Origin: Bacteroidota bacterium
GTDB taxonomy: Bacteria; Bacteroidota; Bacteroidia; Bacteroidales; FEN-979
Length of the DNA stretch: 64,000 bases
Direction of reading: 5' to 3'
NCBI GenBank assembly: GCA_026391795.1
Contig: JAPLDI010000004.1
Coordinates: 26,068 to 90,067 of the forward strand
Position numbers and translations under genes: made by a program. Positions 1 to 64,000 of this stretch are shown one piece after another. Every line of letters starts with the position of its first letter. The first letter of the stretch is position 1. Under the pieces are notes generated by a model. That model was not told the origin of the DNA. It saw only the letters and a list, made by a program, of their open reading frames with translations, and did not search any database.

Positions 1-1
1 C

Positions 2-193
2 GCAGGCAAGAAAAGGGGAAGAAAGCCCCGTGTTCAGGTGGCTTCTAAACCTGAAGTGGTGAAGGCGGAAGTTAAAAAGGCTGTAAAGAAGAGGAAGGTC
101 CGTAAACCCAAAAAACAGGCAGTATCAAAACTGAAAGTACAGAAACCTGTGAAGGTTGAAAAGCCGGTATCCGAAGAAATAAAGCCCGTATAA
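2..193 (+). CDS. 3' end of an unidentified gene with a lysine-rich C-terminal tail (partial; start lies outside the window)
   Basis: Frame 2 is open from the window edge to TAA at 191-193. It translates to ...KKRGRKPRVQVASKPEVVKAEVKKAVKKRKVRKPKKQAVSKLKVQKPVKVEKPVSEEIKPV. It is absent from the ORF track because there is no start in the window. Confidence 0.45.
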   Translation, partial: AGKKRGRKPRVQVASKPEVVKAEVKKAVKKRKVRKPKKQAVSKLKVQKPVKVEKPVSEEIKPV

Positions 194-229
194 TCTCATA
201 AGGAGCCCAATAACCCTTAAGTGACAAAG

Positions 230-277
230 GCACGAAGGCCAAAGATATCCCGGGCGGATTCTTTGAATTCTTCGTGC
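230..277. terminator. Candidate bidirectional terminator hairpin between convergent genes
   Basis: GCACGAAG (230-237) pairs with CTTCGTGC (270-277), followed by TTTTATT on the + strand. It lies between a + gene ending at 193 and a - gene ending at 311. The loop is large (32 nt). Confidence 0.4.
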
Positions 278-310
278 TTTTATTATGATTATACTGTTTC
301 CCTGAAACTT

Positions 311-757
311 TTATTGTGCAGGAATCGGGCTGGAAGCATCGCAAATTTTCGGACAGAGACCAACGGTGTTTGAGGTGCCGCTTAAAACATTTGCCGTCAT
401 GTCCCCTCCGTTCGGATCCATTGCACACATTATCCAGACCCCTCCCCCGGATGCATTGGTTCCGAAATAGATCCTGAACCCGGTTGCCGTTGTGGCTGAA
501 GTAAGGAGGTTATTCATCCCGTTCAGCAAAGTCTTATCAATGACGAACCCTTTAATTTTTTCGGCAGGAACAGTGGTGGCATTGTAATAGTTCTGTGAAT
601 AAGTATGCGCGTCGGCAACCGAGATCTTGCCAACACCCGGAACAATACTTTGTGATTGGGTAAATGAGTATAGTGCCCAAACGCCAAGACCGACGGCAGC
701 GCCTGCTATAAATGGTAAGACCATTCGCAGAAATTTGTTTTTTTCCATAGTGATCAC
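311..757 (-). CDS. Hypothetical membrane-anchored protein
   Basis: 148-aa ORF with an N-terminal TM helix FLRMVLPFIAGAAVGLGVWALYSF. I recognise no family. Confidence 0.5.
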   Translation of the reverse strand: MITMEKNKFLRMVLPFIAGAAVGLGVWALYSFTQSQSIVPGVGKISVADAHTYSQNYYNATTVPAEKIKGFVIDKTLLNGMNNLLTSATTATGFRIYFGTNASGGGVWIMCAMDPNGGDMTANVLSGTSNTVGLCPKICDASSPIPAQ

Positions 758-3157: not shown

Positions 3158-3165
3158 TATCTTTG
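3158..3165 (+). promoter_or_regulatory. Candidate -7 promoter box (TAnnTTTG) for the efflux operon
   Basis: TATCTTTG, with a TTTG at 3131-3134 about 23 nt upstream. It lies 110 nt before ATG 3275. Confidence 0.5.
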
Positions 3166-3274
3166 CAGCTGTTTTAGAGTCCGTTTTCTTAAATGAATAT
3201 TACGAAAATACTAACCCGAACAGCCTGACGTTTGAATTTCTCCCTCAGATCTTGCTCAAGAACCGATAAATGAT

Positions 3275-8766: not shown

Positions 8767-8798
8767 AATTCGTAACTCATAATTCGTAATTCATAATT
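8767..8798. repeat. CGTAATT-family short tandem repeat (F6)
   Basis: AATTCGTAACTCATAATTCGTAATTCATAATT. The same family occurs at 21369-21399. Confidence 0.85.
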
Positions 8799-8804: not shown

Positions 8805-8812
8805 TATCTTTG
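8805..8812 (+). promoter_or_regulatory. Candidate -7 promoter box (TAnnTTTG) for the DEAD-box helicase
   Basis: TATCTTTG lies 131 nt upstream of ATG 8943, implying a long 5' leader that contains the hairpin CCCGGCAA-GAGTG-TTGCCGGG (8882-8902). Confidence 0.45.
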
Positions 8813-8942
8813 CCGCATTATTAACCTGTGTTTCCGGTTAGCCGTTTTTTTGTATTTTCCATATCCACACCCCATAGGGTTCCCGGCAAGAGTGTTGCCG
8901 GGGTAAACCGGAAAGCCCGAAATCACACAATTTATATTTAGT

Positions 8943-10874
8943 ATGGTAACATTTGAAGAATTGGGTATCCACCCTGTTCATGTGGATGCTTTGAAGGAAC
9001 TTGGATTTGAATACCCCATGCCGGTGCAGGAAAAGGTCATTCCCCTGCTGCTTTCCGGCCCGGTTGATATTGTTGCCCTGGCCCAGACCGGCACAGGGAA
9101 GACGGCAGCCTTCGGACTGCCACTCATCCAGATGACCGACCCCCACAGCAAGTACCCCGAAGCACTGATCCTCGCACCGACCCGTGAACTCTGCATGCAG
9201 ATTGCCGGCGACCTGAACGACTTTGCCAAGAACACCGACGACCTGAAGATCCTTCCCGTTTACGGAGGAAGCAGCATGGAAGTGCAGATGAAGGCCCTGA
9301 AAAAAGGCGTTCAGATCGTGGTAGCCACTCCGGGACGACTCTGCGACCTCATCCGCAGGAAAGCCATTAAACTCAGCGACGTGAAGACCGTGGTCCTCGA
9401 CGAGGCCGACGAGATGCTCAACATGGGATTCCAGGAGAGCATCAACGACATCCTTTCGGAAGTGCCGAAAGAACGCGCTACCCTGCTTTTTTCCGCCACC
9501 ATGCCGGCCGAGGTCGCCGTGATCGCCCGGAAATACATGCACGACCCGGTCGAGGTGACCATCGGGAACCGGAATGCCGGCGCCGAGAATATCAAACACC
9601 TTTACTATACGGTTCATGCCAAAGATAAATATATCGCCCTGAAAAGGATTGTCGACTTCTACCCCAATATTTACGGGATTGTGTTTTGCAGAACACGTAA
9701 GGACACCCAGGAAATAGCCGACAAGCTGATGCACGATGGTTACAACGCGGAATCCCTTCACGGCGATCTTTCGCAGGCCCAGCGCGACATGGTGATGCAG
9801 AAGTTCCGCATCCGCCATGTAAAGCTGCTCGTGGCTACCGATGTCGCCGCACGCGGACTCGACGTGGATGACCTGACACACATCATCAACTACAGTCTTC
9901 CCGAAGACATCCAGGCCTACACGCACCGCAGCGGACGTACAGGACGTGCAGGGAAAGCAGGCATTTCCATCTGCATCATCAACCTGAAGGAAAAATATGT
10001 CATCCGTCAGATCGAGAAAAAGATCAACAAATCCTTTATTGCAACGAAAGTTCCCGGCGGAAGGGAGATCTGCGAGAAGCAGCTCTTCAGCATGATCAGC
10101 AAGATGGAAGAGGTGGATCTTGAACATACCGAGATCGACAGCTATCTTCCGGCGATCTACCGCAAGCTGGAATGGCTCGACAAAGAGGAGATCATCAAGC
10201 GCTTTGTCGCACTTGAATTCAACCGTTTCCTGGAGTATTACAAGAATGCCAAGGATATCAACGTTGCCGATGACAAATCGGCGGGCCCTTACAAAGAAAG
10301 GGAATGGGGATCGTATAAAGACCGGGACAAGGGTTCCTACCGGGACCGGGAAAGAGGATCTTACAAGGAGCGTGATAAAGGCTCCTACAAAGAACGTGAG
10401 ACGGGTTCATACAAGGAACGCGACAAGGGCTCCTACAAGGAACGTGAAAGTGGATCTTACAAGGAACGCGAAAGCGGATCTTACAAAGAACGCGAAAGGG
10501 ATTCTGACAGCCCTGCCCGTATCCGCAAGAACGATTCCGGCTTTGCACGGCTTTTCATCAACCAGGGAAAGTCAGACGGACTATTCCCCATCAGCCTTAT
10601 CGAACTTGTGAATGAACATACCCCCGGAAAAAAAGTTCCCATCGGCAGGATTGATCTTTTTGACCGTTCCGCTTCTTTTGAAGTGGGCGCCGAATTTGCC
10701 GAATTCCTGGTGAAGACATTGCAGCACCAGGATTTCCGTGGATCGGAGATCACCGTTGGATTTGAATCGGGAAAAGACAGCCAGCGGAGAGATGAACAGG
10801 AGTTCCGCAAGCGGAAGAAAGACCCGAAGAAATTCGCTGATGCTACAAAACGGAAGAGGATCCGGAAAGATTAA
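8943..10874 (+). CDS. DEAD-box ATP-dependent RNA helicase with a DbpA-like C-terminal RNA-binding domain
   Basis: Motifs AQTGTGKT, PTRELC, VLDEADEML, SAT and HRSGRTGRAG. C-terminal FARLFINQGKSDG...IGRIDLFDRSASFEV. Internal 9x octapeptide repeat. Confidence 0.9.
   Translation: MVTFEELGIHPVHVDALKELGFEYPMPVQEKVIPLLLSGPVDIVALAQTGTGKTAAFGLPLIQMTDPHSKYPEALILAPTRELCMQIAGDLNDFAKNTDDLKILPVYGGSSMEVQMKALKKGVQIVVATPGRLCDLIRRKAIKLSDVKTVVLDEADEMLNMGFQESINDILSEVPKERATLLFSATMPAEVAVIARKYMHDPVEVTIGNRNAGAENIKHLYYTVHAKDKYIALKRIVDFYPNIYGIVFCRTRKDTQEIADKLMHDGYNAESLHGDLSQAQRDMVMQKFRIRHVKLLVATDVAARGLDVDDLTHIINYSLPEDIQAYTHRSGRTGRAGKAGISICIINLKEKYVIRQIEKKINKSFIATKVPGGREICEKQLFSMISKMEEVDLEHTEIDSYLPAIYRKLEWLDKEEIIKRFVALEFNRFLEYYKNAKDINVADDKSAGPYKEREWGSYKDRDKGSYRDRERGSYKERDKGSYKERETGSYKERDKGSYKERESGSYKERESGSYKERERDSDSPARIRKNDSGFARLFINQGKSDGLFPISLIELVNEHTPGKKVPIGRIDLFDRSASFEVGAEFAEFLVKTLQHQDFRGSEITVGFESGKDSQRRDEQEFRKRKKDPKKFADATKRKRIRKD
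10284..10499 (+). repeat. Coding tandem repeat: nine 24-nt units encoding G-(S/P)-Y-(K/R)-(E/D)-R-(D/E)-x
   Basis: GPYKEREW GSYKDRDK GSYRDRER GSYKERDK GSYKERET GSYKERDK GSYKERES GSYKERES GSYKERER. Units differ at synonymous positions. Confidence 0.9.
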
Positions 10875-10887
10875 CCGTAAACTATTT

Positions 10888-10975
10888 CATCCCCTCACCC
10901 CGGCCCTCTCCTCAAGGAGAGGGAGAAGCAAACACTCCCCTTCTCCTGCAGGAGAAGGGGGCGGGGGATGAGGTG
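10888..10975. terminator. Compound GC-rich hairpin element directly after the helicase stop (terminator or REP-like element)
   Basis: Inner hairpins CCCTCTCC-TCAA-GGAGAGGG (10904-10923) and CCCCTTCTCC-TGCA-GGAGAAGGGG (10937-10960). Outer pairing is TCATCCCC with GGGGATGA. Confidence 0.4.
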
Positions 10976-10995
10976 AATAATTCTGCAGCTATTAT

Positions 10996-11973: not shown

Positions 11974-11994
11974 AATACCCGTTCAAAATGCTCT

Positions 11995-12031
11995 TGCAGA
12001 TTTTAGCAGATTAATCGCAGATTTCCGCAGA
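11995..12031. repeat. CGCAGAT-family repeat (F4)
   Basis: TGCAGATTTTAGCAGATTAATCGCAGATTTCCGCAGA. Confidence 0.85.
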
Positions 12032-12042
12032 AAAATAACTAC

Positions 12043-12075
12043 TCCACCACTTCACCACTGCACAATCACACCACA
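12043..12075. repeat. CACCAC-family repeat (F10)
   Basis: CTCCACCACTTCACCACTGCACAATCACACCAC. Compare 21437-21460. Confidence 0.8.
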
Positions 12076-12118
12076 TTAACTTACAGTTAACTATCAACGA
12101 ACGTATTATAAAAAAGCG

Positions 12119-12126
12119 TACCTTTG
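12119..12126 (+). promoter_or_regulatory. Candidate -7 promoter box (TAnnTTTG) for EF-G
   Basis: TACCTTTG lies 21 nt upstream of ATG 12147. Confidence 0.5.
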
Positions 12127-12146: not shown

Positions 12147-14225
12147 ATGCCCTTAAATAAACTTAGAAATATCGGGATTGCCGCACATATCGATGCCGGC
12201 AAGACCACCGTAACAGAACGTATCCTCTTTTTCACCGGAACCACCCGTAAAATGGGAGAGGTCCATGATGGCCAGGCCACGATGGATTTCATGAAACAGG
12301 AGCAGGAACGCGGCATCACCATCGCTTCGGCAGCCATCTCCTGTGCCTGGAAAGATTACCAGATCAACCTGATCGATACACCGGGACACGTGGATTTCAC
12401 GGTCGAGGTGGAGCGTTCCCTCCGGGTCATCGACGGGATGATCGCCGTTTTCTGTGCCGTGGGAGGCGTCGAGCCGCAGAGTGAGACCGTATGGAACCAG
12501 GCCGACCGCTACCGGGTGCCCCGCATTGCCTTTATCAACAAGATGGACCGCACCGGCGCCGACTTTGCCCAGGTGGTGGCCCAGATGAACAAATACCTCG
12601 ATGCCAATGCCGTCCCCTTTAACCTGCCCATCGGCGCAGAAGAACATTTCGACGGCATCATCGACCTGATGACACAGAAGGCTTATGTGTTCAAGGATTT
12701 TGAACAGATTGAAACGGAGATCCCGGAAGCTTACAAGGTAAAAGCCAAAGAGGCCCGCGCCTGGATGGTCGAAAAGATAGCCGAATTCAACGAAGAGATC
12801 ATGCAGCTTTTCTTTGAGGATAAAGAAGTTCCCAGTGAGCTTCTTCAACGGGCTGCCCGCGAAGCCACCTTAAAAATGCTGATCACACCGGTCTTCTGTG
12901 GTGCCGCTTACAAGAACAAAGGGGTCCAGATGATCCTCGATGCCGTTCTGAATTACCTTCCCTCCCCGATCGATGTTGGGGCCGTGGTTGGCATCGATAT
13001 CGACGACCCGGAAAAATCGCATTCAAGGCATCCTTCCGCAAAAGAACCTTTCTCTGCGCTTGCGTTTAAACTGATACACGATCCATTTGTAGGCCAGCAG
13101 ACCTTTACCCGAGTATTTTCAGGAACGCTTCACAGCGGGATGCAGATCCTGAACAGCACCAAGGGAAAACACGAACGCATCGGCAGGATCTTCCGGATCC
13201 ATGCAAAAGACCGCGAAGAGATCAGCGAGGCAGGTCCCGGCGACATTGTCGCTCTCATCGGGTTAAAACTTACCAAGACGGGCGATACACTCTGCGACAA
13301 CGATCATCCCCTTTTCCTCGAAAACATTCACATCCCGCCCTCGGTGATCGAGTTGAAGATCACGCCTGCCAAACGAAGCGAACAGGCAAAGCTGGGAGAG
13401 GCGCTCAACAAGCTGATGAACGAAGATCCCTCTTTTAACGTCCGCTATGACGATGAAACCGAAGAAACCGTCATCTCAGGCATGGGTGAACTTCACCTGG
13501 AGATCATCATCGACCGCCTGAAACATGAATTCAAGGTGGATGCCATCGTGGGCGAGCCGGCAGTTGCTTTCCGCGAAACCATCACCATGGAGAAAGAACA
13601 CCGTTACAAACATTCAAAGCAAACCGGGGGAAAAGGCCAGTTTGCAGATGTGGTGATGCGCATCGAACCCAACGAAGGAAAAGGCTACGAGTTTATCGAC
13701 AAGGTCAAGGGCGGAAACATTCCAGCCGAATTTATCCCGTCGGTCAACAAGGGGATCCTCAAGACCCTCGAACGTGGCATCCTGGCCGGTTATCCTGTGG
13801 TTGATGTAAAGGTGGTGCTCCTCGACGGCAGCCATCACCCGGTCGACTCCTCCGACATGGCCTTCCAGACCTGCGCATCGATCTGCTTCCGTGAAGCCTT
13901 CATGAAGGCAAATCCGATCCTCCTGGAACCGGTGATGAAGATCGAAGTGAACACTCCGGACGACTACATCGGCGAAGTAAGCGGGAACCTCAACCGCCGC
14001 CGCGGCAAGATCGAAGCCATGCGGAGATACCGCAAAGGCGCACAGAAGATCAACGGTCTTGTTCCGCTGATGGAGATGTTCGGCTATGCCACACAACTCC
14101 GGAACATATCCAGCGGACGGGCCAACTACTCCATGGAGTTTTTCCAGTACATGGCCCTGCCCAAGGGGATCCAGGAAGAGGTGCTGAAGGAGCTCGCGGA
14201 GAAGAAGAAAGAAGAGAAGAAATAA
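12147..14225 (+). CDS. fusA: Elongation factor G (stand-alone copy, not in an rpsL-rpsG-fusA context)
   Basis: [22 protein letters not shown] and NKMDR G-domain motifs, with full-length EF-G architecture. The ORF track starts at TTG 12141; ATG 12147 is preferred. Confidence 0.9.
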
Positions 14226-14241
14226 CTGGTGAACTGGTGAG
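14226..14241. repeat. CTGGTGA(A/G) octamer pair (F1 variant) abutting the EF-G stop
   Basis: CTGGTGAACTGGTGAG immediately follows TAA at 14223-14225. Confidence 0.8.
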
Positions 14242-14245
14242 TTTT

Positions 14246-14267
14246 TTCTCTGTGAACCTCTGTGTAC
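14246..14267. repeat. CTCTGTG-family fragment (F2)
   Basis: TTCTCTGTGAACCTCTGTGTAC. Confidence 0.85.
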
Positions 14268-14285
14268 TTCCTTTTTGTTGAACGG

Positions 14286-14333
14286 TTTTTTTACCGCAAA
14301 GGGCGCGAAGTTCAATGCAAAGGACGCAGAGAG
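14286..14333. repeat. ACCGCAAAG-family module (F3)
   Basis: TTTTTTTACCGCAAAGGGCGCGAAGTTCAATGCAAAGGACGCAGAGAG. Confidence 0.85.
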
Positions 14334-14360
14334 AAAATACTGTCAATTATTCGAATGGTT

Positions 14361-14408
14361 AATGCCCATTTCCTAATACTAATGCCCAATACCTAATGCC
14401 CAATACCC
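14361..14408. repeat. AATGCCC/AATACCC-family repeat (F5), containing the MFS start codon
   Basis: AATGCCCATTTCCTAATACTAATGCCCAATACCTAATGCCCAATACCC. ATG 14396 lies inside a unit. Confidence 0.85.
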
Positions 14409-15595
14409 TTTGGAACCGGAACTTCACACTGCTTACGCTTTCCAACTTTTTCATGTGCAGCGCCTACTACTCGCTGATCTCAACACTTCCGGTATACATC
14501 TCAACAGAGCTCCATTCTTCAAAAAGTGTTGTCGGGCTGGTGCTTGCATCGTATATCGTAGCCTCGGTACTGGTGCGTCCCTTTGCCGGTTTCGGACTGG
14601 ATAAATTCGGAAGGAAGACGATCTTCATCGCCTCCCTTCTTCTTTATGCCCTGGTTTTTAACGGATACCTTGTTGCCTGGACGGTTGCCCTGATGGTGCT
14701 TGTACGTTTCACCCACGGGTTGACATGGGGACTGACCACAACGTCGAACTCCACGGTTGCTGTGGATATCATTCCTCCCGGAAAACGCGGACAGGGGATC
14801 GGGTATTTCGGGGTCTCCACAACCCTGGGAATGGCGCTCGGTCCGGTGATCGGGTCGTTCATTTTTGTACATGGCGGTTATTCTGCCATGTTTATCGCCG
14901 GATTCCTGATCAGCCTGGCCAGCATGGCCATGGCAGCATCCATGAAATATCACGACCATATTCCTTCGGGTTCCCTCGAATTCAGGTTTTCAACCCTGTT
15001 TGAGACCACTACGCTGCCTCCCTCTTTCAACCTGCTGCTTATCATGATCACCTATGGCGGACTGCTTTCGTTTGTGGCACTTTACGGACGCGAACTGGGA
15101 ATAGGCAACCCGGCAGGGTTTTTCCTGATCTATGCAACCGGCGTGATCGGCGCCAGGTTCGCGATGGGAAAATTTTTCGATATCCACGGGCCCCGGATGA
15201 TCCTGATCGTATGCCTGACTTTGCTCATTGCGGGTTTTCCCTTCCTTGCCCTCGTTAAAAATTCGTTCGGCTTTTACGCCTCAGCCGTAATCCTGGGTTT
15301 CGGCAACGGCGTCGTCTTCCCGACCTTCCAGGCCATGACCAACAACATGGTTTCGCAGAACCGCAGGGGAGCTGCCAATTCAACCCTTTTCACTGCCGTT
15401 GACATCGGCATGGGGACCGGGATGATTCTCGTAGGGACGCTTGCACAGCGCTTCTCCATCTCAGCTGCGTTTGCTGTCTGTTCGGGAATCTGTATTGCTG
15501 CATTATTGTTCTTTCTTTTTTTTACGATAAAATACTACGAGAAGAACAAGTTGAGTTCCCTTATCGAAGAAAGTGTAAAGGCAAGCATTGAATAA
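14396..15595 (+). CDS. MFS transporter
   Basis: 399 aa with about 12 TM helices and an N-terminal LWNRNFTLLTLSNF typical of the family. Confidence 0.8.
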   Translation: MPNTLWNRNFTLLTLSNFFMCSAYYSLISTLPVYISTELHSSKSVVGLVLASYIVASVLVRPFAGFGLDKFGRKTIFIASLLLYALVFNGYLVAWTVALMVLVRFTHGLTWGLTTTSNSTVAVDIIPPGKRGQGIGYFGVSTTLGMALGPVIGSFIFVHGGYSAMFIAGFLISLASMAMAASMKYHDHIPSGSLEFRFSTLFETTTLPPSFNLLLIMITYGGLLSFVALYGRELGIGNPAGFFLIYATGVIGARFAMGKFFDIHGPRMILIVCLTLLIAGFPFLALVKNSFGFYASAVILGFGNGVVFPTFQAMTNNMVSQNRRGAANSTLFTAVDIGMGTGMILVGTLAQRFSISAAFAVCSGICIAALLFFLFFTIKYYEKNKLSSLIEESVKASIE

Positions 15596-15598
15596 ATC

Positions 15599-15705
15599 TT
15601 CTCTGTGAACCTCCTTTTACCTCTGTGGTTCTCTGTGTAACTACTTTTTACAGGGTTTGGGTATTACACAGAGGTACACAGAGAAGGCACAGAGACTCAC
15701 AGAGG
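15599..15705. repeat. About 107-nt palindromic CTCTGTG/CACAGAG composite element, copy 1 (F2)
   Basis: Left arm TTCTCTGTGAACCTCC..CCTCTGTGGTTCTCTGTGTAA. Right arm TTACACAGAGGTACACAGAGAAGGCACAGAGACTCACAGAGG. It is collinear with 32108-32213. Confidence 0.9.
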
Positions 15706-15726
15706 ATTATTCACTTCTTTTCATCT

Positions 15727-15734
15727 TACCTTTG
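15727..15734 (+). promoter_or_regulatory. Candidate -7 promoter box (TAnnTTTG) for the relA-like gene
   Basis: TACCTTTG lies 30 nt upstream of ATG 15764. Confidence 0.5.
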
Positions 15735-15763
15735 CAACCTGATCATCCGCATACTCCGAAAAA

Positions 15764-17920: not shown

Positions 17921-17954
17921 AACTTTTGTGAGGTGCGTAACAAAAAATTCTTTT

Positions 17955-46779: not shown

Positions 46780-49700
46780 ATGAAAACAAGACCATTCATC
46801 CTGGGCTTTGTGTTTTTTATAACGAGCCTCCTCACCTTTTCCCAAACCACACACTCCAGCCTGCCAACTCATCAACTCACCAGCTCGCCAGCCCATCAGC
46901 TCACCAGCTCATCAGCTCCCTATGACCGCCAGTGGAAAAAGGTTGATTCCCTGAATAACCTGGGGCTGCCGAAATCGGCCCTGGTGATTGTCAACAAGAT
47001 CTACGACCAGGCAAAAAAAGAAAAGAATGATGCGCAGTTCGTCAAGGCCATAATTTTCAGGCTGAAACTGAAAGCCGACTACAGGGAAGATGTGACCGCA
47101 GCATCCATCCGGGAGATCACGGCAGAGATAAAAACATCACGCGAGCCGGTAAGGCAGCTCCTGAATTCAATCCTGGCAGAGGTTTACCAGACCTATTACC
47201 AGAATAACCGCTACCGCTTCCAGGACCGGACCCAGGTTATGAACAACAATACCGACAGCATCCAAACGTGGGACTTGAAAACACTTAGCCGGAAGACTGC
47301 AAATACCTGGCTCCTTTCACTTCAGAATGCACCATTGCTGAAGACGATCCCCATTGGAAATTTCGAAGAAATCCTGATTCAACCCCGGCAGAAGGGAGAC
47401 CCGAAGAAAGATAAAGAAGATAAAAACAATTTTCGTCCTACCCTGTACGACTTTTTATGCTGGCGGGCACTGGGCTATTTTTCAGGAAGCGGGAGTTTTG
47501 ACAAGGCGTATGCCGAAACCTTTTTAATTGATCAGGCTGCCTGTTTTAGCCAGGCACCTGATTTTACCTCGAAGAAGCCTGAATTGCCGGCAGATTCATC
47601 TTCTTATCTTGCCGTTGCCCTTGTCCTCTTTCACGATCTGGCATCTTTCCATGTAAACGACAAAGATCCCCGTGCACTTATCGACGAAGAGATCCATCGT
47701 TTTCAGTTCCTGAGAGAGAATTCAATCCTTGCGGATAAAGACAGCCTCTGCCTCGATGCATTAAAAAAGCTGGAGGGAATACATCTTTCTTCACCCTGGT
47801 CAGCCGATGTCACATATGCCATTGCCGCGTTTCTCAAAGAACAGGGGGCACAGTACCAGCCGCTGGTATCACAGAAACATAAATGGGACCTGAAAGAGGC
47901 TTATGGTTATTGCAGCCTGGCAATAAAGCGGTTCCCGGAAAGTACAGGGGCAAATAATTGCAGGTTGCTGGCCGGTGAGATCGAAAAACCTTCGCTTCAG
48001 CTCCAGTCTGAATATGCTGTTGTGCCCGTCAAACCTTGCCTGGGTGTGATTGAATTCAGGAACCTGAAAAAACTCTCCTTCCGGCTTGTCAGAACAGACC
48101 CCGAAACAAACCAGGAAAGAACCACGAACCGTAACCGGGAGGAACTGATTTCCTACTACACGGGACTGCCTTTTCAGAAGAGCTGGTCGCTCGACCTGCC
48201 CAACGACGGCGATTTCCAGTCGCACAGGATGGAGTTTCTCATTCCCGGAATGCCGGCCGGATTTTATGTCCTTATCGCCTCTTCCGACACTAATTTTAAA
48301 GATCCCGGCCAGGTGATTGCCTGGACGCCTTTCTTTTCAACGCAGATCAGCTACATCAGCCAGCGGAATGAAAAAAGCGAAGTGCGTTTCTACATTCTCG
48401 ACCGGGAGGCCGGGACTCCGTTGAAAAATGTTGTTGCTGTGGCATTCCACAATGTCTATAACTACAACTCCAGAAAATACGAAAATCAGAAGCTGGGTGA
48501 ATATATATCGGATGAAAACGGATCCATCTTCCTGCCGGCATTGCCGCCAACTGCGGCTTCCAGCAGTTTGTTCCTTCGGCTGAAGATGAATGACGACCTC
48601 TTTGTGACGGGTAACTATTACCAGTATCCTGTCTACACTGCGGAAGAGAAAACAACACAGACCACTTATTTCTTCACCGACCGGGGAATATACCGGCCGG
48701 GGCAAACGATTTATTTCAAAGGGATCCTTCTTGAAAAGAAAAAGGAGATATACGCGATCAAGCCGGGTGTTCAAACCACGACGGTTTTTACCGACGTTAA
48801 CGGACAGAAGATTTCTGAACAGAATTTTACAACAAATGAATATGGTTCGTTCAATGGTTCATTTGCAATCCCGCAGGGGTTGTTGCCTGGAAAAATGTCG
48901 CTGTCAAACAGCTCCGGATCTGTCACCGTCTCTGTTGAAGAGTACAAGCGCCCCACTTTTGAGGTTTCCATTGATCCTGTTGAAGGAAACTACCGCCTCA
49001 ACGACAGCGTGACGATAACCGGGAAAGCAATAGCTTATGCCGGAAACAACATCGATGGCGCAGCTGTGAAATACCGGGTAGTGCGCTCCGCCCGTTTTCC
49101 TTTCTGGGAAAGAGGATGGTGGTTCCCCATGCCATCTGTCCCGGAGACAGAGATCCTCCAGGGCACACTGAAAACAGCCGGGGATGGCAGTTTTAAAATA
49201 AAATTCAAGGCAGTTCCCGACCTTACCGTCGACAAATCCTCAAAACCTGTATTTGATTATGTGATCTATTCCGATGTAACCGATATCAACGGAGAGACCC
49301 AGTCGGCCAACGAAAGTGTTTCTGTGGGCTATGTATCCCTGCTGATCGGGCTTGATGTTCCGGAGAAACTCGATCCTTCAAAGGATACGCTGTTTCACCT
49401 GACCTCAACCAATCTGAATGGCCGCAAGACCCCTGCCATTATTACGGTGACCATACAAAACCTGCGCCAGCCCGACCGGTTTTTCCGTGAGCGCAAATGG
49501 GACCGGCCAGATCTGACAGGGATGACTGAAAAGGAATTTCACACCGCTTTTCCGAATGATGTTTATACCGACGAGAACCTTGTTTCCACATGGCCCGTGC
49601 AACTGGATGTCCTGAACAAAGAGTTCAATACATCCAAAGATTCCGTGCTCCTCTTTTCACAGATTGCCAGGCGTGAGAACGGGGGTTGGGGGTTGGAGGA

Positions 49701-53007: not shown

Positions 53008-53016
53008 CAACCCGAT

Positions 53017-53040
53017 GCGGGATGCTGGATGCTGGATACC
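53017..53040. repeat. GCTGGAT heptamers (F7)
   Basis: GCGGGATGCTGGATGCTGGATACC lies 10 nt after the A2M stop. Confidence 0.85.
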
Positions 53041-53090: not shown

Positions 53091-54836
53091 ATGTTACGCA
53101 CACACACATGCGGTGAATTAAACATGCAGTTTACCGGTCAGTTCGTGACCCTTTGCGGATGGATCCAGCGGATACGGGAAATGGGAGGAATGACCTTCAT
53201 CGACCTCCGCGACCGTTACGGAATTACCCAGCTTGTTTTTAATCTCCAGGTTCAGCCCGATCTGTTTGCCAAAGTCAAAGAGCTGGGCCGCGAATTCGTG
53301 ATCTCGGCAAAAGGAAGGGTGGCAGAACGTTCAAGCAAGAATACCAAAATACCCACCGGCGACATCGAGATCCTTGTCGATTCCCTCGAAATCCTGAACG
53401 CTTCAAAGATTCCGCCGTTCACCATTGAAGATAATACCGACGGCGGCGAAGAGCTCCGCATGAAATACCGCTACCTTGATCTCCGCCGGACCGTGGTAAG
53501 GACGAATATTGAATTGCGCCACCGCATGGCCATCCTCACCCGGAATTACATGAATGAACAGGGATTTATCGAGATCGAAACGCCTGTCCTCATTAAATCC
53601 ACGCCCGAAGGTGCACGTGATTTTGTGGTTCCCTCACGGATGAACCCCGGACAGTTCTATGCACTGCCCCAGTCTCCGCAAACCTTTAAACAATTGCTGA
53701 TGGTCGCCGGTTTCGACCGGTATTTCCAGGTCGTGAAGTGCTTTCGCGATGAAGACCTGCGCGCCGACCGCCAGCCCGAATTTTCACAGATCGACTGTGA
53801 AATGTCGTTCGTGACCCAGGAGGATATCCTTAACACCTTTGAAGGACTTGCCAAATACCTGTTCGCACAGGTTAAGGGCATTGACACCGGTGATTTCCCA
53901 AGAATCGGGTACGACGAGGCCATGCGTGAGTATGGAAGTGACAAGCCTGATATCCGTTTCGGGATGAAACTCGTTGAACTGAACGCAACCGTAAAAAACA
54001 GGGGATTTAAAGTCTTTGATGATGCAGAACTGGTTGCGGGCATCAATGCCACGGGATGCTGTGAATATTCACGCAAACAGATCGACGAACTGACCGATTG
54101 GGTGAAACGCCCGCAAGTCGGCGCTTCCGGACTGGTCTATATCCGTTACGGAACCGATGGTACGTTAAAATCATCCGTAGATAAATTTTATTCTGCCGAT
54201 GATCTGAAAGCCATTGCAGCCCAATTCTCCGCCGCTCCCGGCGACCTTATCCTGATCCTGGCCGGGAAAATGGAAAAGACACAAAATGCCCTCGGAACAC
54301 TGCGGCTGGAGATGGGGAAACGGCTTGGCCTGATCGACCCGAAGGTGTTCAAACCCCTCTGGGTGGTTAATTTCCCGCTGCTGGAATGGGATGAAGATTC
54401 AAAACGGTTCTATGCAAAGCATCATCCGTTCACATCACCCGTTCCGCAGGATATCCCGTTGCTCGACACCGATCCCGGATCCGTAAGGGCGAACGCCTAC
54501 GACCTTGTCATCAACGGGGTTGAGATCGGCGGCGGGTCGATCCGTATTCACAACCGCGACCTGCAGAAGAAGATGTTCCAGGTGCTTGGATTCACCGACG
54601 AACTTGCCCAGGAACAGTTCGGGTTCCTGATGAATGCCTTTGAATACGGCGCACCTCCGCACGGCGGGATTGCCTTCGGGTTCGACCGCTGGTGTACCAT
54701 TTTCGGAGGAGGAGAATCGATCCGCGACTTCATGGCCTTCCCTAAAAACAATTCCGGCAGGGATGTGATGATCGATACCCCTTCGTCTATCAGCGAAGAA
54801 CAGCTGAAAGAGCTGAACATTAAGCTGACGAGTTGA
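53091..54836 (+). CDS. aspS: Aspartate--tRNA ligase
   Basis: Class II motifs [14 protein letters not shown] and GGGSIRIH....[14 protein letters not shown]. 581 aa. Confidence 0.95.
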
Positions 54837-54861
54837 GGAGCTGACGAGCTAATGAGGTGAG
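54824..54861. repeat. CTGACGAG-family array (F1) supplying the aspS stop
   Basis: GCTGACGAGTTGAGGAGCTGACGAGCTAATGAGGTGAG. The TGA at 54834-54836 is the stop. Confidence 0.85.
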
Positions 54862-54884
54862 TATCTGTTGATACGGTTGGGTGG

Positions 54885-54917
54885 TTTTTTTTCACCGCAA
54901 AGTCGCGAAGACGCAAG
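54885..54917. repeat. ACCGCAAAG-family module (F3)
   Basis: TTTTTTTTCACCGCAAAGTCGCGAAGACGCAAG, followed by AAATCGTAAATTG at 54937-54949. Confidence 0.85.
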
Positions 54918-54955
54918 AACCTGATTCGGAAATCTGAAATCGTAAATTGCTTTGA

Positions 54956-55012
54956 CTTTATAAACTTTATAACTTTAAGAACTTTATAAACTTTATAAAC
55001 TTTATAAACTTT
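54956..55012. repeat. CTTTATAAA nonamer array (F12) immediately upstream of a lipoprotein gene
   Basis: CTTTATAAACTTTATAACTTTAAGAACTTTATAAACTTTATAAACTTTATAAACTTTT ends 3 nt before ATG 55016. Confidence 0.9.
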
Positions 55013-55397: not shown

Positions 55398-55436
55398 AAT
55401 TTCGCCATCTTGCTTTTCGCCATTTCGCTATTTATA
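55398..55436. repeat. TTTCGC(C/T)ATTT-family module (F11)
   Basis: AATTTCGCCATCTTGCTTTTCGCCATTTCGCTATTTATA. Confidence 0.85.
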
Positions 55437-55440: not shown

Positions 55441-55572
55441 CGGGGTTCCTTCAGCCTTCCTATATCCTACCTTCAGCATAGCATCAGATATGGAATGAAA
55501 AAAACAGTCCATATCTGATGCTATGCTGGAGCTAAGCTGGAGCCAGGCTGGAGGAAGGGTGAAGGAAACCCG
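55441..55572. repeat. About 132-nt imperfect hairpin with a 21-bp perfect stem
   Basis: CAGCATAGCATCAGATATGGA (55474-55494) pairs with TCCATATCTGATGCTATGCTG (55508-55528) around the loop ATGAAAAAAACAG. The outer 20-mers 55441-55460 and 55553-55572 pair at 18 of 20 positions. Confidence 0.9.
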
Positions 55573-58017: not shown

Positions 58018-58062
58018 CAGCTGATGAGTTTGCGAGCTCATCAACTCATCAGCTCATCAGCT
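58018..58062. repeat. F1 hairpin directly after a stop codon
   Basis: GCTGATGAGTT (58020-58030) pairs with AACTCATCAGC (58043-58053) across a 12-nt loop, followed by a further TCATCAGCT. Confidence 0.9.
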
Positions 58063-60216: not shown

Positions 60217-60254
60217 AGCCTTTTCTTCTGTTCTGCCCCCGGACTTTCTTCTGC

Positions 60255-60274
60255 CCCCGGACTAAAGTCCGGGG
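60255..60274. terminator. Candidate bidirectional terminator hairpin between convergent genes
   Basis: CCCCGGAC-TAAA-GTCCGGGG. It is preceded by the direct repeat TTCTTCTG(TTC)TGCCCCCGGAC x2. Confidence 0.45.
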
Positions 60275-60278
60275 TAAT

Positions 60279-60749: not shown

Positions 60750-60754
60750 AGGCT

Positions 60755-60834
60755 GGCTGATGAGCTGATGAGCTATCGGGTTGATGAGCCAAGAAATAAT
60801 CTCGTCAGCTCATCAACTCGCAAACTCGTCAGCT
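60755..60834. repeat. Compound F1 hairpin after the polyferredoxin stop
   Basis: GTTGATGAGC (60780-60789) pairs with GCTCATCAAC (60808-60817). The outer GCTGATGAG pairs with CTCGTCAGC. The TAG stop (60833-60835, - strand) lies in the CTAGCTGACGAG unit. Confidence 0.9.
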
Positions 60835-62476
60835 AGAATGGAAAATCATCCGTTGGTTTCATTGTTTTCTTGTTTTCCCCGATTTTCTTTTTCGGTTTTT
60901 GTGCTTTCCGGTGATAGGAATTTGCTTCCACGTAAATCGCTTTATCGGGTTTGGTCGGACAGGCATATTCACAGGCGCCGCATCCAACACAGATCTTTTC
61001 GTCTACCTTCGGAATGGTCAGCGTTCCCAGGTAAGGAACCATTTCAACTGCTTTTGTCGGACAATGTTCCGAACACGCCCCGCAGGCGGTGAATTTGGTG
61101 ACAACAATGCAGATGTTCTTGATGAATTTTGATGTTCCGATCTGCAGGGTTGCTTTCTGTTCCTTCGTTATTGGAAAGATTGCACCCGTGGGGCATACTT
61201 CCGAACATTTCACACATTCAAAATTACAATATTCGGCGTGAAAATCCATTTTGGGCTGGAACATCCCTGAAAGACCGAACTCCATGAAGGTTGGCTGGAG
61301 TACCTTTGTCGGACAAACGCTCACACAGAGGTGGCACGCGGTGCAATTGGCGGTATAATGCCAGATGCTGACCGAACCCGGCGGGGTTACCGGAACAGCA
61401 CTGATTCCCTGCGAACCGGCACTTTCCCCGAAAACAGTTTTCGCAGATAATAATGCGGTCGTGCCTAAAATAGTGGTCTTGAAAAAATTCCGTTTTGAAA
61501 GATTTGCGGGGAATTCGTTTTTACCGCAAAGGACGCTAAGGGCAGACAAAGGTCGCGAAGACATGTTGTTTGTCACTATAGTCCCTGCGTCCATTGCTTC
61601 TTCTTTGCGCTCTTTGCGGTTAAAAAAAGCTGTCTTGTACCCAATCCCCTTCTCCGGGCATGACGCAAAACAGTCATAACAGGCAACGCATCTCGAAAAA
61701 TCCACCTTTTTTTCTTTCACGTCGATGCAGGTTGACTTGCATGCTTTTACACAATTTCCACAGGATGTACATGCGGTTTCATCGATCCGAATCTTAAAAA
61801 ATGAAAACCTTGAAAAAATACCCAGCAGGGTGCCTGCAGGGCACAGGGTGTTGCAGTACCATCTCCCTTTATAAACTGCCAGGAAAATGATCAGGGTCAA
61901 AAAGAAAAATGAAAAAACGAGCGGCGGCCAGGAAAAGATTTTAACAGGAACCGAATATACGGAATAGGAATCGAACAGCTGAAAGATCCTCGACAGGAGA
62001 TTATTCCCCATGTAAACCAGCGGCCGTAAGAGGTTGGAAAAGATCTTCCCGGCAAGACTGTATGGATCAAGCAGGTTGATGAAAAAGATGGAAGAAAAAC
62101 AACAGACCAGTACCAGTAACCCTAAAACTGTATACCGGATGCCATTTTGCGGCCGGGTATACCGGATCCGATTTTTGATCCGTATTTTTTTGTTTATCCA
62201 GATGAAGATATCCTGCAGTGTGCCCAAAGGGCACACAGTGGAACAATAAACCCTTCCGAAAAAAAGGGTGATAAGGAGGATGAATAGAAATCCTGCTGCT
62301 GCAACGGAAATGACATCAATAAATTTAAGGAATGAGGGAATGAACTGAAGATACAACAGCGCCCGGATCAGCCGGGAGGCAAGAACTCCTGTAAAATCCA
62401 CAAAAACAAATACGGTAAAAAGAAAAAAGATCAGCGAAACAACAACCCTGATCTTTTTCAGGAATAAAAACTGCAT
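60833..62476 (-). CDS. Membrane polyferredoxin (NapH-like N-terminal half plus C-terminal multi-[4Fe-4S] half)
   Basis: TM helices with GRVYCSTVCPLGTLQD and GRWYCNTLCPAGTLLG. Cluster motifs CTSCGNCVKAC, CVACYDCFASCP, CTACHLCVSVCP, CVKCSEVCP, CGACSEHCP and CVGCGACEYACP. The two halves are joined by a repeat-encoded linker. Confidence 0.75.
   Translation of the reverse strand: MQFLFLKKIRVVVSLIFFLFTVFVFVDFTGVLASRLIRALLYLQFIPSFLKFIDVISVAAAGFLFILLITLFFGRVYCSTVCPLGTLQDIFIWINKKIRIKNRIRYTRPQNGIRYTVLGLLVLVCCFSSIFFINLLDPYSLAGKIFSNLLRPLVYMGNNLLSRIFQLFDSYSVYSVPVKIFSWPPLVFSFFFLTLIIFLAVYKGRWYCNTLCPAGTLLGIFSRFSFFKIRIDETACTSCGNCVKACKSTCIDVKEKKVDFSRCVACYDCFASCPEKGIGYKTAFFNRKERKEEAMDAGTIVTNNMSSRPLSALSVLCGKNEFPANLSKRNFFKTTILGTTALLSAKTVFGESAGSQGISAVPVTPPGSVSIWHYTANCTACHLCVSVCPTKVLQPTFMEFGLSGMFQPKMDFHAEYCNFECVKCSEVCPTGAIFPITKEQKATLQIGTSKFIKNICIVVTKFTACGACSEHCPTKAVEMVPYLGTLTIPKVDEKICVGCGACEYACPTKPDKAIYVEANSYHRKAQKPKKKIGENKKTMKPTDDFPF
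61518..61627. repeat. About 110-nt palindromic F3 element lying in-frame inside the polyferredoxin ORF
   Basis: Left end TTTTTACCGCAAAGGACGC. The right end's reverse complement is TTTTTAACCGCAAAGAGCGC. It encodes ...FFNRKERKEEAMDAGTIVTNNMSSRPLSALSVLCGKNEF... Confidence 0.85.
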
Positions 62477-62480
62477 CTCC

Positions 62481-63410
62481 TTACATTTTTATCCGGTTGA
62501 TGGACAGTTTTGTCAGGTCCATGCTGCCAATTCCGGCTTCACTGGCAAGTTTGATGTAGGAAACGTCTGCCGGCTCGCTTCCGAACATTTTGGCCGCCGC
62601 AGCATCGGCAGCAACAATGTCCTTTGAAAGGATCAGCGATTTCATCAGCACCACATCTTCTTCCGAAACCCCTCTCGGGCCGCGCTTTGTCATGACCCGG
62701 TAGGCATCCACAACATTCAGGTCGGGTTTTCGGTAACCGGCAAAATCGGCAATGCACTGGTTCAGGTCGTTTTTGTGCCAGTAACGGCGATCCCAGACGA
62801 TTCCCATGTGGTTTTTCATGGATGCTGTTATAATGGAGGATCCATGGCTTTTCAGAACGGGGACATTGATGAATACATCCGAGCTGAGGATCAGCTCATG
62901 GACCTTGGCTTCTTTAAGCTTCTTCCCGTTTTTCACGCTCACCTGCTGGTAATTCCCTTCCGAATTGCCCGGCACCAGTTTCCCGCCGGCATCCTTCACC
63001 GCTTTTTGAATGCCGCTGTTTTCGTAACATTTATTCCAGCTGTCGCAGGTATTGTCAAAAACATAAACCGTTTTTGCCCCTGCACTGTAACACTGTTCGA
63101 TGATCCGCTTCACCAGGTCGGGGTTGGTGTTGGCGCCACGTTCGGGGGAGGTATCCCACCCGATGTTGGGCTTCACCACAACGGTCTGGTTGGGCTTGAC
63201 AAACGCCTTCATACCTCCGAGCGAAGCTATCGCCTTGTCGAACATCTGGATCGGCTCGCCGTCTTTCACGGCAACGAGGTCATACCCTGCAGGCGGGCCG
63301 GGAGGTGGAACTTTTCCGGCAAAGATCTTTCGGAAATCCCCAAAGGTCATCGCAGCACCGGCAGCAACACCCGTAAGTATGCTTTTTTTGAAAAAATCTC
63401 TTCGGTCCAT
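62481..63410 (-). CDS. DUF362-domain protein with a twin-arginine (Tat) signal
   Basis: MDRRDFFKKSILTGVAAGAAMTF, and VVVKPNIGWDTSPERGANTNPDLV typical of DUF362 as I recall. It lies 4 nt upstream of the polyferredoxin gene. Confidence 0.7.
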   Translation of the reverse strand: MDRRDFFKKSILTGVAAGAAMTFGDFRKIFAGKVPPPGPPAGYDLVAVKDGEPIQMFDKAIASLGGMKAFVKPNQTVVVKPNIGWDTSPERGANTNPDLVKRIIEQCYSAGAKTVYVFDNTCDSWNKCYENSGIQKAVKDAGGKLVPGNSEGNYQQVSVKNGKKLKEAKVHELILSSDVFINVPVLKSHGSSIITASMKNHMGIVWDRRYWHKNDLNQCIADFAGYRKPDLNVVDAYRVMTKRGPRGVSEEDVVLMKSLILSKDIVAADAAAAKMFGSEPADVSYIKLASEAGIGSMDLTKLSINRIKM

Positions 63411-63519
63411 GAAAATATTTTTAGATCATAAAGGTACAAAATCATTCCGATATCTTCGATCTTTTACCTTTCGGGAGTCGCCGATTTTTGTTACTTTAGC
63501 TGGGCAAAAAAGAAACGGT

Positions 63520-63999
63520 TTGATCACCCCCGATACCATATCAAACATCTTGTCCGCTGCGCGGATCGAAGAGGTTATCTCTGATTTCGTTTCCCTGAAA
63601 AGAAGGGGAACGAATTATATCGGGCTGTGTCCTTTTCACAATGAAAAAACGCCGTCATTTACCGTTTCCCCGGCAAAAGGGATCTTCAAATGTTTCGGTT
63701 GCGGCAAGGCAGGAAATACGGTAAACTTCCTGATGGAGCATGAGCATTACACTTATCCGGAAGCATTGCGGTTCCTGGCGAAACGATACCACATTGAGAT
63801 TGCCGAAGAAGTTCAGACACCCGAAAAAATCCAGGAACAGAATGAAAAGGAGACCCTTTTCCTGATCAACCATTTTGCGCAGAAATATTTTGAACAAACC
63901 CTCTTCGAAACCGAAGACGGAAAGGCAATCGGCCTTACATACCTGCAGGAGCGCGGTTTCCGTGAAGAATACATCCGGAAGTTTCAGCTGGGCTATTCG
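63520..63999 (+). CDS. dnaG: DNA primase, N-terminal part (partial; runs off the window)
   Basis: The frame is open from TTG 63520 to the window end. Zinc-ribbon CPFHNEKTPSFTVSPAKGIFKCFGCGKAGN. It is absent from the ORF track because there is no stop in the window. Confidence 0.85.
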   Translation, partial: MITPDTISNILSAARIEEVISDFVSLKRRGTNYIGLCPFHNEKTPSFTVSPAKGIFKCFGCGKAGNTVNFLMEHEHYTYPEALRFLAKRYHIEIAEEVQTPEKIQEQNEKETLFLINHFAQKYFEQTLFETEDGKAIGLTYLQERGFREEYIRKFQLGYS

Positions 64000-64000
64000 A

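Follow-up and report, generated by a model that had tools for sequence, protein, structure and literature searches.

Repeat-packed spacers in a housekeeping neighborhood

The window analysed here is a 64,000-nt stretch of DNA (positions 26,068 to 90,067, forward strand, of contig JAPLDI010000004.1, GenBank assembly GCA_026391795.1) from a Bacteroidota bacterium of the Bacteroidales lineage FEN-979, and our subject is the set of short tandem repeats, most with units of 7-10 nt, that occupy the spacers between its genes. The genes themselves are ordinary chromosomal housekeeping ones, encoding EF-G, RelA/SpoT, LeuRS, AspRS, TruB, UppP and FtsX as well as an AcrAB-TolC-type pump and a DEAD-box helicase, and their order is conserved in the nearest reference genomes, uncultured Bacteroidales of peat, fen, permafrost and lake samples whose RelA proteins are 82-86% identical. 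Pfam and NCBIfam scans returned no transposase or integrase among the window's scanned open reading frames (ORFs). We find that the two dominant groups of the repeats, F1/F10 and F2/F3/F4 in the nomenclature used below, are arms of a widespread, cross-phylum cassette design in which mirror-image tandem arrays enclose a small cargo gene, and that the window holds only cargo-less versions of it, in the form of hairpins, solo arms and expanded arrays.

Repeat modules are carried by 21 of the 27 spacers of at least 40 nt and make up 42% of the 4.76 kb of intergenic DNA, as the original prediction, drawn from the letters alone, had anticipated in describing the longer spacers as concatenated modules of recurring families. 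Tandem Repeats Finder (TRF) reports 38 arrays of period 6-12 in the window, or 5.9 per 10 kb, against 0-2 per 10 kb in most of the distant Bacteroidota loci; array counts of this kind were used in place of 7-mer counting, which was too noisy in relatives, and the same comparison finds the unit vocabulary to be common across the clade. CTGRYGAG is present 28 times, where shuffled sequences have 6.1 +/- 2.6 (largest count 11), and the doublet CTCTGTGNNNCTCYGTG 14 times, where they have 0. Units are 65-fold (F1) and 52-fold (F2) denser between genes than within them, about 40-65-fold per kb, with 3-20-fold for most other families. When the proposed sites were read, the expected units were present, those at 12043, 17955 and 21415 only as loose variants; most of the sites are indeed intergenic spacers, but four (22441, 31718, 46865 and 61518) lie in frame within genes and the one at 31255 gives a stop codon. 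That the repeats are not microsatellite noise, that loci without linkage have the same units in common and that many modules can form hairpins all proved sound, seven hairpins having DNA-fold z values of -3.5 to -12, and some conserved blocks were found as well, of 40-46 nt.

That the arrays might be an artefact of assembly or sequencing is hardly credible. Short-read contigs do tend to stop at arrays, and exact-protein look-ups across samples yielded either nothing or contigs identical to the window that end at arrays; yet Logan contigs of other sequencing runs are 100% identical to the window over 12534-18860, four module-bearing spacers included, and the arrays are therefore not a product of assembly. 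Related metagenome-assembled genomes of other projects, some with contigs of at least 0.4 Mb, also carry the same families.

Thirteen families, F1 to F13, had been distinguished, and while their units are all present, several are variants of fewer kinds. F1 and F10 form a single family, YTGRYGAG, of period 8, in which F10 (CTCACCAC) reads as GTGGTGAG reversed, and the latter is a variant of F1 that is common among relatives; F2 (CTCTGTG), F3 (CTTTGCG), the F3 variant CTTTGTG and F4 (ATCTGCG) form one superfamily, YTYTGYG, of period ~10; and a unit listed separately as a 13-mer is of F6 type. F2, F3 and F4 are not free-running arrays. They form blocks, in most cases three or four units long, whose ends are conserved and whose variants are position-specific, and these blocks are found again at unlinked loci of the window and in relatives. 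The module ends are terminal inverted repeats, TTAACC.../...GGTTAA and TTACAC.../...GTGTAA; adjoining elements abut via an A/T run, and arms pair as arm, loop and reverse arm. Two F2 or F4 arms in mirror orientation make up the large hairpins at 15599-15712 (four CTCTGTG-type units, one of them degenerate, a loop and four CACAGAG; z = -4.9), 32098-32224 (F2, 4 + 4 units; z = -7.2) and 36632-36773 (four CGCAGAT, a loop and four ATCTGCG, in the polarity of the cassettes described below; z = -7.1). Here and throughout, positions are those of the window, arrays are given on the + strand unless the - strand is named, and hairpins are given without strand. One F1 reading, CUGAUGAG, resembles the core of the hammerhead ribozyme; it has no match to the Rfam hammerhead covariance models even at an E-value of 1, and we rejected the candidate, the likeness being a coincidence.

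Mirror-image arms around small cargo genes

For the decamer arms, a scan of reference genomes with the F2 20-mer CTCTGTGAACCTCYGTGTAA gave matches in all orders of Bacteroidota and, beyond this phylum, in Ignavibacteria, Chloroflexota, Kiritimatiellota, Gemmatimonadota and Alphaproteobacteria, and these matches sit in the same multi-unit block. Clustering of 1,194 ORFs neighboring F2 modules showed no recurrent transposase and brought to the surface the gene of a small GxxExxY protein (TIGR04256; PF13366, Pfam PDDEXK_3; PD-(D/E)XK nuclease family), located between four CACAGAG and four CTCTGTG units. Multiple horizontal transfers of GxxExxY have been noted before (PMC3424549). As an independent test, 80 loci were collected by protein similarity alone, of which 78 were usable, and the 130 nt upstream of each gene were compared with the 130 nt downstream, segments 770-900 nt away serving as controls. 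At least five inverted 7-mers were common to both flanks in 45 of the 78 loci against 4 of 68 control segments, and the mean number in common was 6.95 within a locus against 2.46 across loci. The flanks follow the pattern TTAACC-RCRRAG x3-4, gene, YTYTGYG x3-4-GGTTAA, with unit variants that include the window's F2, F3 and F4, and tandem cassettes abut as ...GGTTAA, A/T run, ACC..., a type of junction also present in the window at 14277-14295, 20560-20575, 36578-36600 and 54870-54890.

For the heptamer and octamer arms, we compared the window with loci of relatives and metagenomes (numbered L001, L002 and so on) and looked in them for pairs of inverted arrays separated by 200-1600 nt. In the close relative L001, and in L093 and L124, from genomes that include Anaerophaga and a Gemmatimonadaceae, inverted F1-type arrays enclose genes for a four-helix-bundle protein (TIGR02436/PF05635), the 23S rRNA intervening-sequence protein family, to which Avd, a protein of diversity-generating retroelements, is homologous (PMC10053308). 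Again, an independent set of 80 metagenome loci was fetched by protein alone and 66 were scored for complementary flanks: at least five inverted 7-mers are common to the two flanks in 55 of the 66 (42 of 51 once near-duplicates are removed), as compared with 3 of 35 controls, TRF places a tandem array on either side of the gene in 52 of 65 loci, the periods being 7, 8 and multiples, and the upstream flank is richer in G than C in 62 of 66. Arm units vary between loci and the two arms within one locus match; F1 units themselves are present in 11 of the 80 PF05635 loci and in none of the 80 GxxExxY loci.

Two further observations concern the cargo. At L123 (4407-5232, Desulfosarcina) a gene for an 83-aa GIY-YIG nuclease, a third small cargo family, lies between inverted F1-type arrays (AGCTGGTA ... 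CAGCTCAC). In Bacteroidota cassettes the sequence TGTATTACYTTTT is conserved ~45-65 nt upstream of the PF05635 start (L395, L397, L400, L405, L406, L411 and L001 16125-16145) and may serve as a promoter of the cargo's own.

A filled and an empty version of the same site can be compared directly. L400 is syntenic with window 23216-24342, and in its peptidase-thioesterase spacer a PF05635 gene is preceded by three F1-forward units and followed by five F1-reverse units. All that the window has at this point is a 28-nt F1 hairpin, GCTGATGAGCTGACGA followed by CCTCATCAGC (23523-23550; z = -5.3), with the same flanks on both sides, and the hairpin is thus the cargo-less version of a PF05635 cassette site. 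L001 also has a PF05635 cassette here, built of a different F1 unit variant. A tRNA-Val(CAC) gene (21285-21360) is enclosed, in the window as in L001, by F1-forward and F1-reverse-type arrays: the left arm in the window is the F1-forward array that follows a stop at 21089-21125 and the right arm the F10 array, CTCACCAC x3, at 21437-21460 (TRF).

The cargo also bears on whether these could be REP/REPIN-type elements (repetitive extragenic palindromes and their hairpin-forming doublets), copied by a RAYT, a tyrosine transposase of IS200-like type that has been domesticated and whose gene would lie elsewhere in the genome. Inverted hairpin doublets in extragenic positions would fit, as would the coexistence of several families per genome, as in Pseudomonas REPINs (PMC3116915). 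The arms here are nevertheless tandem arrays and not single palindromes of 20-40 nt, they have no consistent GTAG or CGTC tag at the element ends, no transposase-like or RAYT gene is among the scanned genes of the 64-kb window, and the genes found within arms are PF05635, PF13366 and GIY-YIG, not Y1 transposases, which makes this explanation very unlikely.

Comparison of orthologous spacers, proposed with the original prediction as a check, shows that relatives hold different families or none, and hence that there is gain and loss of modules. The spacer that separates the MFS gene from relA contains an F2 hairpin in the window, in L002 and in L003, the window copy being inverted relative to the other two; L001 has F3, an F4 hairpin and F1-reverse, L006 an F1 hairpin, and L004, L005, L011 and L012 a bare 70 nt. 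Similar variation is seen in the EF-G to MFS spacer. Because orthologous spacers differ in this way, the modules come and go as blocks, within the time that lies between species whose proteins differ by ~15% in sequence.

Such whole-block changes have to be set against the view that the arrays are plain simple-sequence repeats, generated by in-place slippage of local seeds under a lineage mutational bias, with nothing mobile and no tie to cargo. The long, nearly perfect arrays F7 x18, F8 x11 and F9 x13 do resemble slippage products, copies of the MFS gene's own start region are found within the F5 array at 14360, and transition:transversion ratios between neighboring units are an ordinary 1.1-1.6, with no special mutational signature; moreover, heptamers were in 2007 the commonest long simple-repeat unit in prokaryotes, with slippage proposed as their source, according to the account of Mrazek 2007 given in PMC4679880. 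In-place slippage of local seeds does not lead one to expect, however, that four-unit blocks of 40-46 nt, position-specific variants included, turn up at unlinked loci and in other genomes, that an exact F2 20-mer is found across phyla, that orthologous spacers hold different families, or that the arms of a cargo gene match their own partner better than arms elsewhere, and the comparison of the window with L400 points to gain or loss of a whole block. We therefore consider slippage by itself an unlikely source of the arrays.

The modules also obey a rule of polarity, which we counted on arrays no more than 15 nt from a stop or start codon, pooled from the window and eight relatives. On the sense strand, G exceeds C in 19 of 24 stop-side arrays and C exceeds G in 10 of 10 start-side arrays (stop-side vs. 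start-side, Mann-Whitney p = 6e-5). One and the same family is used in opposite orientations, CTGATGAG after stops and CTCATCAG before starts, and the same holds for GCGAAAA after stops vs. TTTCGC before starts and for GATGCTG after stops vs. CCAGCAT before starts. Since an inverted pair reads alike on both strands, the G-rich-arm-first order is a property of the element and not of the direction of transcription. The rule is also kept by solo arms and by non-complementary neighbors such as F8 then F7 (32680-32904), which points to selection on what stops or starts tolerate nearby. F3 occurs in both orientations relative to genes and so lends no evidence to a stricter ordered grammar; indeed, for the fixed multi-family syntax that had been proposed from the recurring order of modules after stop codons we find no evidence, the recurrence being that of the polarity rule combined with the cassette architecture.

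Strict placement beside stops and starts with a strand rule, together with strong hairpins, could also be taken as the mark of a host regulatory code, in which binding-site arrays or RNA structures would serve transcript ends, insulation, translation starts or RNA processing and selection would keep their order. The 10-nt period of YTYTGYG resembles the consensus spacing of RNA polymerase pause signals. For TAACTGA repeats that lie just upstream of starts, MacGregor proposed a role in regulating translation (PMC4679880). Against such a code, close relatives have no modules, or other families, before the same housekeeping genes (relA, EF-G and MFS), F3 stands in either orientation, modules are tolerated within ORFs, and no Rfam family matches them. 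When 15 hairpins were folded as sense and antisense RNA no consistent asymmetry emerged, and hence there is no support for G-U-tuned RNA structure or selection at the RNA level. Terminator-like sites are not enriched (24 vs. 22.5 in shuffles), and intrinsic terminators were rejected, the hairpin at 23523 alone qualifying; arrays of pause sites were dropped as well, for although YTYTGYG fits the G(-10)...TGYG pattern of the consensus, its orientation to transcription is inconsistent. A regulatory code is in our judgment as improbable as slippage.

We consider it somewhat probable, instead, that the spacers as a whole are littered with arms of widespread small cassettes, each consisting of mirror-image tandem arrays and a loop able to hold a gene of ~120 codons. 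What we observe in its favor is the association of arms with cargo, one filled and empty site, the gain and loss of modules, in-frame insertions and the polarity rule. Several observations weigh on the other side. The window has no PF05635 or GxxExxY gene, whether sought by tblastn, by the Pfam and NCBIfam scans or with Pfam on Logan contig L198, so that the cargo link depends on relatives and on the sequence similarity of the arms. F5, F7, F8, F9, F12 and F13 were found beside no cargo gene in the 160 loci, nor was F6, and the F5 array at 14360 looks locally generated. Both 80-locus sets consist of the most similar matches and are non-random, with some near-duplicates. The F2 hairpins of the window have a polarity opposite to that of cassette arms, with the pyrimidine arm first, as if two element ends abutted. 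Finally, the single filled/empty pair, 23523-23550 vs. L400, reveals no target-site duplication, and mobility is something we infer from presence and absence only.

Relation to known repeats and elements

Heptamer-class tandem repeats have reportedly been known in bacteria since 1990, from Mazel's work on the cyanobacterial short tandemly repeated repetitive (STRR) sequences. The arrays of the window share with long simple-sequence repeats the head-to-tail units of 7-10 nt, the mostly intergenic position, the large number per genome and the variation in copy number and sequence between relatives; head-to-tail units of 5-11 nt are present beyond chance, and slippage alone does not account for them. 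They differ in the coexistence of many families, the fixed blocks of 3-4 units and the arms tied to cargo genes. Published examples include the GGGAATC repeats of Xanthomonas and GGGGATT repeats of Nostoc (Mrazek 2007, as related in PMC4679880; Rehm 2015, PMC4692102), and in Xanthomonas 70-75 inverted repeat pairs are able to form stem-loops (PMC4692102). Rehm et al. saw generally no association of repeats with mobile elements and stated in 2015 that there was no detailed literature on heptamer-class repeats (PMC4692102).

Comparable in placement are the intergenic direct repeats with the unit TAACTGA, which are known from Beggiatoaceae, Cyanobacteria and five Bacteroidetes (MacGregor 2015, PMC4679880). 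These are likewise heptamer arrays a few nt from starts, with orientation-dependent stops in three frames, other heptamers mixed in and a sporadic cross-phylum spread suggesting transfer; in contrast to the modules described here, they are direct repeats of one unit for which a binding protein was proposed, with neither paired inverted arms nor cargo genes. Tandem copies of TAACTGA, CCCCAGT, TTGGTCA and CAACAGT are absent from the window.

An arrangement similar in cargo is found within ribosomal genes. Intervening sequences of 23S rRNA carry a PF05635 ORF in Leptospira and Coxiella, and rRNA intervening-sequence stems are cut by RNase III. Cargo family is thus common to both, as are the bracketing inverted repeats with their capacity for a long stem, whereas the cassettes here stand between protein genes, their arms are tandem arrays and the window copies are devoid of cargo. 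An Rfam scan found no rRNA gene in the window, a tRNA being the sole match at the gathering score and an E-value of 1, and the window copies are accordingly not inside rRNA.

Comparisons with REP elements and bacterial interspersed mosaic elements (BIMEs), with MITEs (miniature inverted-repeat transposable elements) and with Rickettsia palindromic elements, made in the original prediction, are fair analogies. REPs, BIMEs and REPINs of enterobacteria and pseudomonads are also extragenic mosaics of oriented short motifs with hairpin doublets and several families, but the arms of the window have no single palindromic unit, GTAG/CGTC tag or RAYT that we could see, and other genes are associated with them. 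MITEs and Rickettsia elements are likewise short, non-autonomous, hairpin-forming and present or absent between relatives, with some in-frame copies; they differ from the modules in that the latter are internally periodic in their arms and lack a target-site duplication at the one filled/empty pair, as well as any parent transposon whose transposase is known. Gene-bearing relatives do exist here, with cargo (PF05635, PF13366 and GIY-YIG) that is no known transposase.

If the cassettes do underlie the modules, the cargo-less copies would be derivatives or scars, as miniature transposable elements derive from full ones, and their units would expand and contract by replication slippage, lengthening arms into arrays such as F7 x18. 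Selection would then act as a filter on orientation, under which G-rich arms, which often contain TGA and ATG, are tolerated after stops and C-rich ones before starts. Transcripts may fold into long interrupted stems and, by analogy, be handled like rRNA intervening-sequence stems; with cutting of an RNase III type, an insertion between genes could do almost no harm. As candidate movers there are only the GxxExxY or GIY-YIG nucleases, no other enzyme having been seen as cargo.

More tentatively, and with the balance of our judgment against it, the 7-10 nt intergenic arrays of many bacteria, the STRR, GGGAATC and TAACTGA kinds among them, could be arms of unrecognised cross-phylum mini-cassettes with PF05635, GxxExxY or GIY-YIG cargo, that is, the design of 23S rRNA intervening sequences placed between protein genes, with cargo-less hairpins and solo arrays as non-autonomous descendants. 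The earlier impression that nothing of the kind had been described holds in part: PMC4679880 and PMC4692102 describe the repeats, mixtures of heptamer families, heptamers in inverted pairs and arrays just upstream of starts, with no mechanism reported, but the cargo link was not found in the literature. Searches by unit and by protein family, with subscription journals outside their coverage, found no account in which PF05635 or GxxExxY genes have arrays as their arms, and searches with the repeat sequences themselves returned nothing or PCR primers only. We see a fair chance that this link to cassettes is new and holds generally.

Should the tie between arrays and cargo prove reproducible, it would give these repeats an origin and the PF05635 and GxxExxY proteins a genomic context, and rRNA intervening sequences would come to look like a special case of a much wider element. 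The link may explain where puzzling bacterial repeats come from through three families of tiny, horizontally scattered genes, and it would supply an annotation rule for ~40% of the spacer DNA in such genomes. In practical terms, the arrays break short-read assemblies, create spurious small ORFs and alter protein ends.

Modules within genes, remaining arrays and other features

Several modules are read as protein or end a reading frame. In the M28 peptidase gene, an in-frame insertion of ~72 nt (22400-22471, - strand), which starts with an F7 array and encodes 24 aa, is missing from the L001 ortholog, the only such comparison made among the in-frame cases; here, as in Rickettsia palindromic elements, a repeat is read as protein and the ortholog does without it. 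In-frame modules are read in three other genes, namely F11 in a class II aldolase (31719-31747, - strand, TRF; SEKRKAKSEN), F1-reverse in an alpha-2-macroglobulin, where it is translated after the signal peptide (46856-46918, TRF), and F3 in the linker of a 4Fe-4S protein (61518-61570, gene on the - strand). In the unrelated thioesterase and aldolase genes an F1 array contains the last codons and the stop, which gives both proteins the ending KLMS* (24300-24314 and 31265-31279), the F1-forward array at 24309-24345 providing the TGA stop of the former and F1 units at 31255-31278 (- strand) that of the latter, and F1 may have replaced the original 3' ends of both genes.

From the left end of the window, the arrays not yet described begin with F6 (AATTCGT/AATTCAT, period 7) at 8767-8798. 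A four-unit F4 module of CGCAGAT type and period ~10 follows a stop as a solo arm at 11990-12031, the same block being present at 36620, at 46640 and in L001, and a C-rich F10/F1-reverse-type array lies upstream of the EF-G gene at 12041-12075. Beyond that gene, two F1-forward units immediately 3' of its stop (14226-14241) are followed by a two-unit F2 block (CTCTGTGAACCTCTGTG; 14248-14266), a purine-rich F3 arm of four units consisting of a T-run and ACCGCAAAG... (14288-14336) and the F5 array with its tandem copies of the MFS gene start region (ATGCCCAAT; 14360-14407). An F3-variant array (GGCGCTAA) at 17955-17976 (- strand) provides the stop of a hydrolase gene, a four-unit F2 module occupies 18810-18871, and another is present as two exact 62-nt tandem copies at 20443-20566, followed by a purine-rich F3 arm of three units at 20570-20593. 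Among these, the arrays at 8767, 12041, 14360, 17955 and 20443 were called by TRF as well as read in the sequence.

The segments 18732-18860 and 20365-20493 are an exact 129-nt duplication at which short-read contigs end; the first 10 codons are common to the adjacent minus-strand genes of a hydrolase and of a BNR-repeat protein, as are the region upstream and the greater part of an F2 module, and the first 51 nt of the module at 18810 fall within the duplicated block 18732-18860.

Between the F1 arms around tRNA-Val are a pyrimidine F3 arm (CCTTTGCG x4 ... GCGGTTAA; 21163-21206) and an F6 array (AATTACG; 21368-21399, TRF). The thioesterase gene is followed by a pyrimidine F3 arm of the CTTTGTG variant (CCTTTGTG x3 ... 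GGTTAA; 24373-24405) and an F5 array of AATGCCC/AATACCC (24498-24555, TRF), and F1 forward and reverse units at 29912-29954 form a weak hairpin (z = -1.8). The long arrays stand close to gene ends: F7 x18 (32680-32806, TRF; CCAGCAT on the sense, - strand) abuts the start codon of a tadA-like gene, F8 x11 (32828-32904, TRF; TGAGATG on the sense, - strand) directly follows a stop, and F9 x13 (35748-35837, TRF), G-rich on the sense (-) strand, contains the truB stop, with a purine F3 arm (TTAACCGCAAAGG...; 36560-36590, - strand) 13 nt upstream of the truB start.

In the right half, a variant purine F3 arm (ACCGCTAAGACGCAAAGG; 42800-42835) and an F13 array (TCCCATAT; 42878-42911, TRF) precede the F1-reverse array (CTCATCAG; 42964-43001, TRF) that ends 5 nt upstream of the leuS start. 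A four-unit F4 module (46646-46690) and an F7 array in G-rich orientation (53014-53037, TRF) each follow a stop, and F1-forward units (54824-54860) run across the stop of aspS, succeeded by a purine F3 arm (54884-54910) and an F12 array (ACTTTATAA x6.6; 54955-55012, TRF) 3 nt upstream of a start codon. An F11 array (TTTCGCC; 55399-55433, TRF) is followed by a near-perfect hairpin with a 24-bp stem and then a GCTAAGCTGGA array (55468-55553, TRF; z = -12.1), and F1 hairpins occupy the entire spacer at 58018-58062 (z = -3.5) and at 60753-60832 (z = -3.8).

Motifs like TAYCTTTGCA, which we take to match the Bacteroidetes -7 promoter box TAnnTTTG, occur downstream of modules and upstream of starts at 3160-3175, 8805-8820, 12100-12125 and 15730-15745, and the pyrimidine-strand F3 units (CCTTTGCG) resemble the same box minus its TA.

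Other features of the window stand apart from the repeat families. The C-terminal part of the DEAD-box helicase gene has a coding tandem repeat of 24/48 nt (10283-10500) that specifies GSYKERD-like peptide repeats and whose period, in contrast to that of the intergenic arrays, is a multiple of three. At 10885-10985 a G+C-rich nested hairpin, CCCCTCACCCC...GGGGGATGAGG around two smaller palindromes, is unrelated to the tandem families and has only Rfam matches well under threshold (whalefall-1, 21 bits vs. 37). Directly upstream of a BlaI/BlaR-like pair (Penicillinase_R, Peptidase_M56), an A/T-rich, AACTATAATATTTAGTT-like palindrome is repeated three times with period 21 (42561-42610), and these copies may serve as repressor operators. 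Two copies of CTTCTGCCCCCGGACT followed by the palindrome CCCCGGACTAAAGTCCGGGG lie between convergent genes at 60217-60278, outside all listed families. At the right end, an ORF on the + strand (~63470-64000) with a DnaG-primase-like zinc-finger N-terminus (CPFHNEKTPSF) runs past the end of the window, and since it overlaps the 80-aa minus-strand ORF at 63655-63897, the latter is probably spurious.

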